64,000 nucleotides of DNA from Rhodocyclaceae bacterium (GCA_028714035.1 JAQTNA010000017.1:6750-70749), one strand, 5' to 3'. Positions 31,782 through 39,103 are shown, counted from the first letter of the stretch. Numbers and translations: made by a program. The notes: generated from the sequence alone by a model not told the origin.

Positions 31782-32459
31782 ATGAAAACCATGATCCTTG
31801 CCGCCGGTCGGGGGGAGCGCATGAGGCCGCTCACCGACCATACGCCCAAGCCGCTGTTGCCGGCGGGAGGCAAGCCGCTCATCGTCTGGCACATCGAGCG
31901 CCTGGCCGCGGCCGGTTTCCGGGAGTTGGTCATCAACCACGCCCACCTGGGCTGGAGAATCGAGGCCGCCCTGGGGGATGGATCCCGCTGGAAGGTCGCC
32001 ATCGCCTGGTCGGACGAGGGGACGGCCCTGGAAACCGCGGGCGGCATTGCCCACGCCTTGCCACTCCTGGGGGATCAGCCTTTCGCCGTGGTGAACGGCG
32101 ACGTTTACTGCGACTACGATTTCTCCCGGCTGAAGGCGAGGAGCCTGGGCGACGACCTGGCGTACCTGGTGCTGGTGCCCAACCCGGAGCATCACCCAAA
32201 AGGGGATTTTGCCCTGGAGGACGGTCGCGTGCGGCACGAGGGCGAGCCGCGTTTCACCTTCTCGGGCATCGGCCTCTATCGCCCCGAACTGTTCGCCGGA
32301 CTCGACCCGGACGCTCCGGCGAAGCTCGCCCCCCTCCTGCGCGCCGCCATGGCGGCAGGGAAGGTCGGCGGCGAAGTCTTCACCGGCCGCTGGCTGGACG
32401 TGGGCACCCCCCAGAGGCTGGCCGAACTGGATGCGGAACTGTCCGAAACAGCAAGTTGA
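31782..32459 (+). CDS. murU: N-acetylmuramate alpha-1-phosphate uridylyltransferase
   Basis: Track ORF 31689..32459 is trimmed to ATG 31782. The sugar-nucleotidyltransferase N-terminus is [26 protein letters not shown]. It is paired with amgK. Confidence 0.88.
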
Positions 32460-32487
32460 ACCGCGGAGACGCAAAGGCGCAGTGAAA
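32456..32487. repeat. MITE-family terminal repeat at the left border of the dnd island
   Basis: TTGAACCGCGGAGACGCAAAGGCGCAGTGAAA differs at about 4 positions from the reverse complement of the copy-3 right terminus (TTGAACCGCAGAGACGCAGAGGCGCAGAGGAAA). It overlaps the murU stop codon. Confidence 0.65.
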
Positions 32488-32615
32488 TCCGCGGATTTTT
32501 CAGGAAGCGGAGGGCTTTCTGTTTCAGATCGGCGGCAAAATCCGTCATGCCCCCGTAATCGCGGTAGACTTCCGCACCCACCGCGAAACGCGGAACCCTG
32601 AAACTCGCCGATACC

Positions 32616-32957
32616 ATGCCGACCCTTTCCGACGTTTTCCGCGACGCCGATGCGCACTCGCTGCTTGCCTTTTTTGATTCCCTGGACCTGGACCTTTTCG
32701 AGAAAAAGCTCTTCGAGAAGAACGGCAAGCCCTATCTCACCTGCCTTGCCACGGGCAAGGAGAAACAGGCCAAGCCCGAGGGGCGTGAAGCAAAACCCGC
32801 CAACGGTACACGCCCGTATCTGACGGCTGAACACCTTGTCCTGACCCGCGGCCGACAGTGCCATGCGGCAATCATCCACACCCCGCACCTACCTATACAA
32901 CGCTCTTCCCGCAAAAACAGCCTCCCCGGAAAACTTCGCGTAGAATCCGCCGGTTGA
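32616..32957 (+). CDS. orphan ORF, possibly a gene remnant; function unknown
   Basis: 113 aa and GC-rich. Only the first 55 or so residues look protein-like (MPTLSDVFRDADAHSLLAFFDSLDLDLFEKKLFEKNGKPYLTCLATGKEKQAKPE). The rest is low-complexity and basic. No RBS or family was recognised. Confidence 0.25.
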   Translation: MPTLSDVFRDADAHSLLAFFDSLDLDLFEKKLFEKNGKPYLTCLATGKEKQAKPEGREAKPANGTRPYLTAEHLVLTRGRQCHAAIIHTPHLPIQRSSRKNSLPGKLRVESAG

Positions 32958-32986
32958 ATTTACTTGTAGCACATTGGAGTTTATTG

Positions 32987-34327
32987 ATGAATTACCTTGA
33001 GGCGATTGCGACTGCGACTGCGACTGCGCCTGCGGAGCATCTCGCCAGAACCAAGGCCCGGCTGGCTGACCTTTACAGGCGAGATTCGCGCCCATGGATC
33101 GTAGCCTTTTCGGGTGGAAAAGACTCCACGTTGTTACTCCAACTTGTCTATGAGTTGCTGTTGGAGTTAGGGAAGCAAGCCGGAAAAACCGTGCACGTAG
33201 TCTCGTCGGACACCGGCGTTGAGGCTCCCAATGTCAGTGCCTACCTAGCTAGAACTTTGGAGTGCATTGCTCACGGAGCGCAAGAGGCCGGACTTCCTTT
33301 TCAGGTGCACTTGGTAAAACCCGCCCCGCATGAGAGCTTTTGGGCAAAGCTCATCGGTGCCGGGTACCCGTCGCCAACGCGCTGGTTCCGCTGGTGTACG
33401 ACCACGATGAAAATTCGGCCTACACGGCGCATCATAGAAAAAATTACCCAACATGACGGTAGTGTTATCCTTCTGCTTGGCACTAGGGTTGATGAGAGCA
33501 GTGACCGTGGCAAGAGGATTCAAAACCGTCAAAGCACGGCAGATGGATTGAATCCGCATCATGAAATTCCCAACGCCTTGGTCGCTACCCCCATCGTAGA
33601 TTGGTCAACCGAGGAGGTATGGGATTACCTGTTTTCCCACAACCCACCTCCATGGGGAGGGCGCCACGATTTCTTGCTGGAACTCTATCGGCAGGCGGCT
33701 GGCGGAGAATGTCCCGTTGTCTTCGATCTTTCAACTCCCTCTTGTGGCGGCAGTCGTTTTGGCTGCTGGACCTGCACTGTGGTCAAGGAAGACAAGTCAA
33801 TGCAAGGATTCATCCAATCCGGTGAAGTCCAATTTGCTCCGTTGAATGATTTTCGGGATAAGTTGAAGCGAGTTCGAGAATTGCAAGACTGGCGCTCCCC
33901 TCGAAAGAAGGACGGCACAGCCGGCCCTGGCCCTTTTCGCCCAGAGAGGCGGGTTGAACTTTTTCGAGAGCTGTTGGCCCTGGAAAAACAGGTTGGTGAA
34001 AGACTCATAAGCGATGAGGAAATTCATGGAATCCAGGAGCTTTGGACCCGCGAATTTGATTTGAGCGGAACGGCGTTAAAGCTGGCGGCAGAATTTGGGA
34101 GGCGCGTGGAAACGATGGACGAGCTTGATCATCCCCCCCTGGAACAGCAAGTTCTGGACGAATTGCTTGCTGCCGGCGACCTTGAGCCAGATCTTATAGA
34201 CCGACTGTTAAGCCTTGTACTAAGGGAGTACCCAGACCTGACGGTCTGGGGTTCGAAGGCGGCCTTGGAACGTGAAATTGCTCAGGCCATCGCCGCTTCG
34301 GTCGAGCGCCAAGGAGGAACAGCATGA
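32987..34327 (+). CDS. dndC: DNA phosphorothioation system sulfurtransferase DndC (PAPS-reductase/ATP-pyrophosphatase fold)
   Basis: Track ORF 32858..34327 is trimmed to ATG 32987 (GGAG RBS 7 nt upstream). PP-loop WIVAFSGGKDSTLLLQL and RWCTTTMKIRP. The C-terminal Cys cluster is ECPVVFDLSTPSCGGSRFGCWTCTVV. These are the DndC hallmarks. Confidence 0.92.
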   Translation: MNYLEAIATATATAPAEHLARTKARLADLYRRDSRPWIVAFSGGKDSTLLLQLVYELLLELGKQAGKTVHVVSSDTGVEAPNVSAYLARTLECIAHGAQEAGLPFQVHLVKPAPHESFWAKLIGAGYPSPTRWFRWCTTTMKIRPTRRIIEKITQHDGSVILLLGTRVDESSDRGKRIQNRQSTADGLNPHHEIPNALVATPIVDWSTEEVWDYLFSHNPPPWGGRHDFLLELYRQAAGGECPVVFDLSTPSCGGSRFGCWTCTVVKEDKSMQGFIQSGEVQFAPLNDFRDKLKRVRELQDWRSPRKKDGTAGPGPFRPERRVELFRELLALEKQVGERLISDEEIHGIQELWTREFDLSGTALKLAAEFGRRVETMDELDHPPLEQQVLDELLAAGDLEPDLIDRLLSLVLREYPDLTVWGSKAALEREIAQAIAASVERQGGTA

Positions 34328-38637: not shown

Positions 38638-38668
38638 TTCAGATTTCCAATCTAACGGAGAACCGGCA

Positions 38669-38893
38669 ATGACTTCGAAGCGCATCGTCATCGTCGCCGG
38701 CCCCAACGGAACTGGGAAGACCACCTTCGCCCGTGGAACCCATCTGCCGCCAAGTATGGCCCCAGTTGTCTCCGGCAAATGCTGCACGAGCGGCACCAGC
38801 CGGCCCGCTCGGTGCCGATGGAGGTATTCGCATTCTAGGGCAATCAGGCCCCGATTTATCAGCCTAACGGTACGTCCCAGGGCGATCGCATGA
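38669..38893 (+). pseudogene. decayed zeta-toxin/AAA-type ATPase gene (only the N-terminal P-loop segment is recognisable)
   Basis: MTSKRIVIVAGPNGTGKTTFAR is the N-terminus of the zeta-toxin-like P-loop kinase family. After about 22 codons the frame becomes basic, low-complexity sequence, consistent with a deletion or frameshift. Confidence 0.55.
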
Positions 38894-38920
38894 ATGCTAC
38901 GGTAATACATGGACGGTGTT

Positions 38921-39039
38921 CTCCCTCCCCTTCGAGGGGAGGGATGGGGCGGGGATGGGGTAAGAATGTGCCTGGAACGGCCTGGTTTCTGCCTTTCCAT
39001 ACCCCATCCCCCTCCTCACCTCCCCCTTGGAGGGGGAGG
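38921..39039. repeat. composite palindromic element (CTCCCCTTNNAGGGGAGG family), copy 2
   Basis: CTCCCTCCCCTTCGAGGGGAGGG ... GGGGATGGGGTA / ACCCCATCCCCCTCC ... CCTCCCCCTTGGAGGGGGAGG. It has the same three-part architecture as 22695-22799 with a different central segment. Confidence 0.75.
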
Positions 39040-39067
39040 AAGCGATGCATACGACATTCATGCGATT

Positions 39068-39103
39068 GCGCTGCGGTACGTCTCGGCGTCTCGGCGTTTC
39101 AAA
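39068..39103. repeat. MITE-family terminal repeat at the right border of the dnd island
   Basis: The last 22 nt, CTCGGCGTCTCGGCGTTTCAAA, match the copy-3 right terminus CTCTGCGTCTCTGCGGTTCAAA at 19 of 22 positions (hand alignment). It is in inverted orientation relative to 32456-32487. Confidence 0.55.

Follow-up and report, generated by a model that had tools for sequence, protein, structure and literature searches.

How can a 6.6-kb segment of accessory genes come to lie between two convergent core genes when it carries no integrase or transposase gene of its own? This question is raised by a stretch of 64,000 nucleotides from a Rhodocyclaceae bacterium (GCA_028714035.1, JAQTNA010000017.1:6750-70749; hereafter the window), in which an island containing a dnd cassette separates murU from hslO. 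The initial annotation, made from the sequence alone, had noticed that the island is bracketed by inverted termini resembling those of two elements of roughly 140 bp in the same window. It had offered two explanations: either the cargo landed inside a pre-existing element similar to a miniature inverted-repeat transposable element (MITE), such elements then being insertion hot spots, or termini and cargo form a non-autonomous composite that is mobilised in trans. We found that the island arms are real members of a dispersed hairpin-repeat family, that they are the outermost lineage-specific DNA of the locus and are common to relatives with other cargo, and that the dnd block occurs in this genome alone. 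We infer in what order the DNA arrived and that the arms were passive, and we lean towards the reading in which the murU-hslO spacer was occupied by an old repeat, whose arms came to enclose a changing collection of later DNA, the dnd cassette being the latest arrival.

Both island edges are arms of a hairpin-repeat family

The genome (G000; 87 contigs, 4.02 Mb, with the window on contig C17) was searched with an iterated nhmmer profile seeded from the two reference intact hairpin elements of the window, 9785-9922 and 55967-56105 (both plus strand, A arm to B arm). The 33-nt arm consensus obtained, TTTAACCGCAGAGGCGCAGAGGCGCAGAGAAAA, contains three CGCAGAG heptamers. A very relaxed regular expression for the heptamers was discarded, as its output was swamped by false positives in coding sequences. 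An arm is built of a TTGAA or TCAC tag, followed by two or three tandem CGCNGAG heptamers and an A-run; in many copies a conserved outer block of ~10-15 nt, GGAAAAGCAnTTGAAC, continues outward from the arms. At strict thresholds the profile finds 251 arms in the genome (103 inverted pairs and 45 unpaired matches), with a median pair length of ~130 bp and no strict pair longer than 315 bp. Relaxed thresholds give 135 inverted pairs and 13 strong solo arms genome-wide, the left edge of the island being among the 13. The whole element normally measures ~115-160 bp, with arms ~65 nt apart, and is asymmetric, with one A arm (TCAC-) and one B arm (TTGAAC-); the classifiable pairs are 62 AB, 3 BB and 1 AA. 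Pairing by arm identity was uninformative (0.754 within elements and 0.782 between), owing to the systematic difference between A and B arms. Among 41 relatives compared, the CGCAGAG family is abundant in two genomes only, G000 (180 sites) and the same-genus G001 (175 sites). At C6:44083-45930 and C20:70926-71695, arms of the CGCAAAG subfamily or of mixed type face each other around ordinary-looking genes, a hydrogenase-large-subunit-like open reading frame (ORF) in the first case and a NUDIX-like ORF in the second.

At the left edge of the island, a B-type arm (32446-32487, plus strand) consists of the outer block AACAGCAAG, TTGAAC, the heptamers CGCGGAG, CGCAAAG and CGCAGTG, and AAA. The match of this terminus to the repeat family, proposed in the initial annotation, was confirmed: positions 32456-32482 score 22.9 bits (E 3.9e-4 against the whole 4.02-Mb genome), and the outer block resembles that of many family copies. 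The arm overlaps the stop codon of murU (31689-32459, plus strand; nucleotidyltransferase, Pfam NTP_transferase 2.4e-25), whose last four codons (ETAS) and stop are supplied by the outer block and the TTGA of the arm (32446-32459). The C-terminal tail of MurU varies in every relative after a conserved AELDAELS; it ends in VGRQ in G001 and in DSRREAVSV in the metagenome contig L116.

At the right edge, a B-type arm of the CGCCGAG variant (39079-39117, minus strand) is formed by TTTGAAA, two CGCCGAG units, a degenerate third unit and an outer block of 14 nt, which reaches the stop codon of hslO (39118-39981, minus strand; Hsp33, Pfam HSP33 7.5e-69). The standard profile scores 39079-39096 (minus strand) at just 8.1 bits. 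Positions 39079-39103 are identical at 24 of 25 nt to the CGCCGAG sub-variant arm TTTGAAACGCCGAGgCGCCGAGACG, present at C16:19888, C19:24893 and C39:13400 and as a proper pair at C18:11306/11422. Moreover, the degenerate pattern TTTGAAMCGCNGAGRCGCNGAG has three sites in the window, namely the two reference elements and 39082-39103, with 0 expected from 100 shuffles; the right terminus is thus genuine and better than chance.

The accessory segment therefore does lie between inverted termini of the family, with the outer ends pointing outward (left, plus strand, at 32456; right, minus strand, at 39103). The arms are 6.6 kb apart, as against ~65 nt in normal elements, and both are of B type, unlike the A and B arms of normal elements, which corrects the anatomy originally expected. 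As already stated in the initial annotation, mobility genes and their usual traces are absent: of the ORFs tested on both strands, none has an integrase or transposase domain in Pfam, no tRNA gene is found in 30000-42000, and no flanking direct repeat exceeds chance-level 14-26-mers. No target-site duplication is visible outside 32446/39118, a weak test given that the family's own duplication length is undefinable.

Comparison of the murU-hslO locus in relatives

Neighbour genes were checked in 25 (murU) and 40 (hslO) species representatives, G001 included; none of them has murU next to hslO, and in G001 no arm follows either gene. The closest HslO relatives retrieved from a search of 5.8 billion proteins are just 80-83% identical, and no relative above 83-85% protein identity was found in the collections searched. 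The HslO homologues bear the names Rhodocyclaceae, Thiobacillus and Candidatus Desulfobacillus, which points to a Rhodocyclaceae-like betaproteobacterium. The sole other contig with an exact HslO (L061) is 100% identical to the window. The relatives compared below are the contigs L116, L117, L196, L197, L198, L210 and L211, and the data on the empty site come from metagenome contigs only.

The empty state is represented by L116, obtained in a metagenome scan with MurU (MurU 85% and HslO 83% identical), in which murU and hslO are convergent and 75 nt apart, without an arm; the two genes are adjacent in the more distant outgroup L117 too. The window is homologous to L116 DNA as far as 32446 and again from 39118 onwards, 6671 nt replacing the 75-nt spacer. 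Going inwards, the left arm begins 9 nt from its breakpoint and the right arm 14 nt from its own, and these breaks in homology make the arms with their outer blocks the outermost lineage-specific DNA. The initial annotation would have taken a murU-hslO spacer without any such element as evidence against its proposal. Literally, L116 has such a spacer, but this is not decisive: L116 is a different species, and it thus shows the empty state, not the absence of an earlier element before the cargo arrived. The L116 spacer carries a hairpin, TGTAGGTCAGGTTTCGTCAGAAACCTGAC, resembling repetitive extragenic palindromic sequences (REPs) and similar to the REP beside a RAYT-like gene at C14.

Arms with other cargo can be observed at the same locus. 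In L198, an arm (GGCGGCGAG GCGGCGAG AAAA) lies 14 nt past the hslO stop, just as in the window, and within the collinear alignment; the cargo behind it consists of MNT/HEPN-like genes. In the orientation of the window, L196 and L197 carry a CGCCGAG-type arm with ~165 nt of adjoining sequence, a gene for a BRO-N protein, a 97-aa ORF, a DUF4160/DUF2442 remnant and hslO; a decayed arm, at the hslO offset found in the window, is possibly present between the remnant and hslO. The arms at this locus share a rare C-variant heptamer, C being found at the variant position of both leading heptamers in only ~9 of 286 arm clusters in G000. The sequence just inside the left arm of the window (32488-32653, plus strand) is common to L196 and single-copy in G000: positions 32455-32653, which comprise the arm and ~165 nt of inner sequence, are 77.6% identical to L196 over 201 nt (blastn), equal to the identity of the hslO DNA. 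The homologue beside hslO in L196 is the sole one of this inner sequence; 400 family genomes give chance-level matches of 20-42 nt only. Additionally, positions 38312-38447 are 86.8% identical to the remnant downstream of hslO in L196 and L197. The low-GC dndC-dndD-dndE::ftsK block is found in G000 alone among the relatives compared.

Since L196 and L198 share arms at the locus and differ in cargo, the arms predate the dnd cassette. Likewise, the sharing of the inner sequence and of the DUF4160/DUF2442 remnant with L196 indicates that the arm pair and part of its content predate the lineage split. This supports the earlier proposal in so far as the cargo lies between arms that preceded it. The DNA past the hslO stop varies in every close relative, with murU, BRO-N, MNT/HEPN-like, unknown convergent, PEP-CTERM and small membrane protein genes found there (L116, L196, L198, L210, L211 and G001). 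Arms accompany cargo in G000, L196 and L198, and L116, L210, L211 and G001 are arm-free; whether arms are present or not, the stretch downstream of hslO is a hot spot of plasticity.

Gene content of the island

Low GC (0.43-0.58) is restricted to ~32850-38100, close to the interval of ~32960-37880 given in the initial annotation, and the flanking parts have values of 0.60-0.73. Next to the left arm, an orphan ORF of 113 aa (32616-32957, plus strand) is of doubtful coding status, with no match in Pfam or PADLOC; only its first ~13 codons lie within the DNA shared with L196, and no homologue adjoins murU in relatives. A tblastx match in G013 was rejected (wrong frame and low complexity; G013 has pepP after murU).

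The cassette itself comprises three genes, all on the plus strand: a dndC-like PAPS reductase gene (32988-34327; PADLOC DndC 1.1e-115; Pfam PAPS_reduct), a gene for a DndD/PbeC-like SMC ATPase (34324-36366; PADLOC PbeC 1.9e-128, DndD 8.5e-88), and a gene for an FtsK/SpoIIIE ATPase-domain protein (36359-37876; Pfam FtsK_SpoIIIE 4.5e-42), the weakly DndE-like N-terminus of which scores 18.8 bits, under the cut-off of 25. A full Dnd phosphorothioation system has dndE, dndA, dndB and the restriction genes dndFGH in addition to dndC and dndD; searches with Pfam and PADLOC found no dndA, dndB or dndFGH within the interval. The closest homologues of the 36359-37876 protein are 62% identical and are encoded next to dndD in Thiorhodococcus and Thiocystis (Chromatiaceae). 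The homologous cassettes of these two genera and of a Thiotrichales metagenome-assembled genome consist of dndC-dndD-ftsK only, and the arms, the orphan ORF and DUF4160 are absent from them. As the low GC is confined to the block and its homologues occur without arms, the dnd block is a later, separate module.

Downstream of the cassette, overlapping DUF4160 (38099-38362) and DUF2442 (38317-38637) genes (together 38099-38637, plus strand; Pfam 2e-23 and 6.9e-11) form a pair that is older at the locus than the dnd block, as its remnant is common to L196. The piece shared with L196 and the unshared dnd block together uphold the earlier suggestion of more than one event. A decayed P-loop ORF of zeta/AAA-like type follows (38453-38893, plus strand), with weak P-loop matches in PADLOC and none in Pfam. 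Finally, a separate palindromic element of ~190 bp (38876-39075; inverted repeats with termini CAGGGCGATCGCATGAATG) abuts the right arm and appears to truncate it after ~25 nt; an 81% identical copy at C69:2474-2625 has no adjoining heptamer arm. This element belongs to a second small palindromic family of CCCCTT(C/G)(A/G)AGGGG hairpins with termini CAGGGCRATCGCATGAATG, other copies of which are at ~22694-22799 of the window, C69:2474-2625 and C12:47381-47486, and the cargo of L198 holds a similar CCCCTTGGGGGAG palindrome.

An IS110-family element at a fixed arm position

At six contig ends (C13_R, C25_L, C30_R, C31_R, C44_L and C77_R) an insertion sequence (IS) end, here end A, abuts the inner part of an arm, and at six others (C24_L, C27_L, C3_L, C46_L, C55_L and C85_L) a second one, end B, abuts TTGAAC and the first heptamer. 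We infer that the two ends are those of a single element, present in about six copies and interrupting the arm where heptamer 1 meets heptamer 2 (CGCAGAG^GCGCAGAG). A 33-aa peptide from end B matches positions 317-342 (the C-terminal 26) of the IS110-family transposase model NF033542 (NCBIfam, E 1.1e-5); a Pfam search of the same peptide gave no match. The contigs C52 and C1 carry a variant IS end. An IS110-family element at one fixed arm position makes the arms specific targets of at least one mobile element. Neither junction of the island coincides with this target position, and no IS110 remnant was found in the island. At least eight groups of 4-10 contig ends in G000 share identical terminal sequences of ~125-132 nt. 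Transposase inventories of G000 are incomplete, owing to multi-copy IS families that break the assembly and leave IS interiors missing.

Heptamer arms bracket GxxExxY genes

Two B arms enclose a 436-bp segment (C16:21890-22325) that contains the single PDDEXK_3 gene of G000 (C16:21943-22290; TIGR04256, GxxExxY, 150 bits). This cassette (locus L200) occupies the spacer upstream of a trpC-like gene, which starts MTDILNKIIAKKREEV; the equivalent cassette of G022, G013 and G006 likewise occupies a spacer, there upstream of a trpG-like gene that starts MLLMIDNYDSF. At all nine full-length PDDEXK_3 loci inspected, in six other genera and G000, the gene is bracketed by inverted heptamer arrays, the heptamers being lineage-specific (CACAGAG, CGCAAAG, CACCAAG, CACGAAG or ATCTGCG). 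The bracketing at nine of nine loci identifies the ~140-bp "MITEs" as gene-less relatives of GxxExxY/PDDEXK_3 cassettes. We found no description of such a GxxExxY/heptamer-arm cassette in the literature. G001 gives no PDDEXK_3 match, despite its ~175 arm sites.

Other enzymes that might recognise the termini were sought in G000, as the initial annotation had suggested, and none was found: no IS with the termini of the family was detected, with the IS interiors unassembled, and none of the three Y1 transposase (Y1_Tnp) genes has an adjoining arm of the heptamer family. The RAYT-like gene at C14 was rejected as the cognate enzyme, as it is flanked by a different REP (GTAGGTCGGGATTTATCCCGAC). This RAYT-like Y1 transposase gene (C14:55055-55288, locus L064) is REP-flanked and followed by a partial duplicate of its own 3' part.

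Origin of the island

In the reading that we prefer, a member of the heptamer-arm hairpin family would have settled in the short convergent murU-hslO spacer and filled it from stop codon to stop codon, supplying the last codons and the stop of murU. With the spacer filled in this way, later DNA would have had to lie between the arms, sparing the flanking genes. Successive arrivals, namely the DUF4160/DUF2442 pair, the now decayed P-loop gene and the second palindromic element, would have pushed the arms 6.6 kb apart, and the low-GC dndC-dndD-dndE::ftsK cassette would be the most recent of them. The arms would then be passive relics at the edges of a variable islet, and the dnd genes would not have been carried in by them. 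Several observations weigh against this history. Both arms are of B type, a combination found in only 3 of 66 classifiable pairs, as against 62 with A and B arms, and no recognisable repeat interior is left beside either arm. The left outer flank of L196 is an arm of another type, not murU. No relative has a gene-less hairpin alone between murU and hslO, and the empty site with an intact ~140-bp element that the initial annotation had hoped for in related genomes was not found. Moreover, in the sister pairs L116/L198 and L196/L210 (HslO 90-91% identical) arm and cargo are jointly present or absent, which needs either two losses or a unit-wise gain. The missing arms-only intermediate, the joint presence or absence of arm and cargo and the B+B arms keep an active landing-pad role alive.

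Such a role, in which recombinogenic arms would promote the capture or exchange of DNA, by means of an arm-specific nuclease or as short homology anchors at hundreds of loci, and in which the hslO-proximal arm pair would be a landing pad for defence and toxin-antitoxin cargo, we regard as possible though rather unlikely. It would account for the differing cargo of three related lineages, in each of them behind an arm at one and the same distance from hslO, and for the joint behaviour of arm and cargo in both sister pairs. It is also consistent with the IS110-family element at a fixed arm position in six or more copies, and with the only GxxExxY gene of G000 lying between two B arms, the same combination as in the island. 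However, the hslO downstream region is variable in the arm-free L210, L211 and G001 too, so that plasticity needs no arms, the island junctions lie away from the IS110 target position, and an action of GxxExxY on arms is not known, G001 having its many arm sites and no PDDEXK_3 match. The idea of the elements as insertion hot spots has partial support, from the IS110-family element that targets the arms at six or more sites; the 135 pairs and 13 strong solo arms yield no other facing pair enclosing a multi-kb segment of atypical GC. Facing solo arms on C2 (9.5 kb), C20 (3.3 kb) and C3 (11.7 kb) were set aside as probably unrelated neighbours, with normal GC and a partner arm of another subfamily. 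The narrower claim that the hslO-side arms are a conserved landing pad at which dnd (G000), BRO-N (L196) and MNT/HEPN-like (L198) cargo is swapped seems to us unlikely. If true, such a landing pad would add a novel, integrase-free class of hot spots where defence islets form, and active landing pads in general would help to predict where defence genes integrate.

Transposition of the arms and their contents as one non-autonomous unit, past or present, with an enzyme acting in trans, was the second proposal of the initial annotation, and we consider it highly improbable. Arms that are exactly the outermost lineage-specific DNA, the correlation of arm and cargo among relatives, the small gene-bearing B+B element of G000 and the inverted arms around PDDEXK_3 genes at nine of nine loci would all suit it. 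Against it speak the different cargo behind the shared arms of L196 and L198, which places the arms before the dnd block, and the dnd homologues that occur elsewhere without arms. In addition, the unit with its inner edge is single-copy in G000 and was not found in the 400 family genomes, single arms rather than complete elements flank the cargo, both of them B-type, no duplication is visible at 32446/39118, and no transposase with the island termini was found, the three Y1 genes having no arms beside them. Coincidence, finally, would mean two unrelated solo arms, or relics of two hairpins, at the 3' ends of murU and hslO, with accessory DNA that came independently. Arms are frequent (~350 matches in 4 Mb) and lie in intergenic spacers near gene ends, facing solo arms surround ordinary genes elsewhere (for example C6:44083/45907 and C20:70926/71670), and the island arms are different sub-variants, both of B type. 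Nevertheless, strong solo arms number just 13 in the genome, both island arms are within 9-14 nt of the homology breakpoints of the empty site, L198 has the right arm in the same position, and L196 retains the left arm together with the flank inside it; we therefore think a coincidence very unlikely.

Relation to known systems and significance

With the old repeat preferred as the origin of the island, the locus can be compared with MITE or REPIN hairpin repeats split by nested insertions. The heptamer-arm family is likewise made up of short non-coding units in many intergenic copies with inverted arms (103-135 pairs of ~130 bp), and the island appears to be one copy of it split by later DNA. 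Unlike those repeats, its arms are tandem heptamer arrays behind a TTGAA or TCAC tag and not palindromic REPs, the family is related to GxxExxY/PDDEXK_3 cassettes and not to an IS or RAYT, and the island arms are 6.6 kb apart and both B-type. REPs are specific targets of IS110/IS1111 elements (Tobes & Pareja 2006, PMC1525189), an IS family that is RNA-guided (seekRNA, PMC11187229; bridge RNA, PMC11208160). The IS110-family end at one fixed arm position in G000 is similar, although here the target is a heptamer-array arm, and the island is not inserted at it. The GxxExxY cassette of G000 recalls Ssn/NTS of Neisseria (PMC11893778) and RAYT/REPIN in having one small gene of nuclease fold framed by inverted copies of a repeat that is also dispersed, without genes, in hundreds of copies; the fold differs, being PD-(D/E)XK as opposed to GIY-YIG or HUH, and GxxExxY proteins have no known biochemical activity.

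MITE-flanked mobilisable units, such as integron mobilization units and the MITE-bracketed class 1 integrons of Acinetobacter, have two complete MITE copies and a target duplication. The island resembles them in holding accessory genes without mobility genes of their own between inverted repeats of one family; it differs in having one arm per side, no visible duplication, a single copy and arms that predate the newest cargo. It is also unlike an integrase-borne genomic island, as it has no integrase domain (Pfam), tRNA gene or flanking direct repeats.

Taken at the strength given above, the locus suggests that an integrase-less defence islet can sit between core genes where a selfish hairpin repeat is the sole dispensable DNA in a tight convergent spacer. 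It also links the "MITEs" of this genome to GxxExxY/heptamer-arm cassettes, and it shows that their arms are specific targets of an IS110-family element. Moreover, with arms common to relatives that are ~80% identical and cargo that differs among them, it provides a dated example in which it becomes testable whether such repeats tolerate insertions or attract them.

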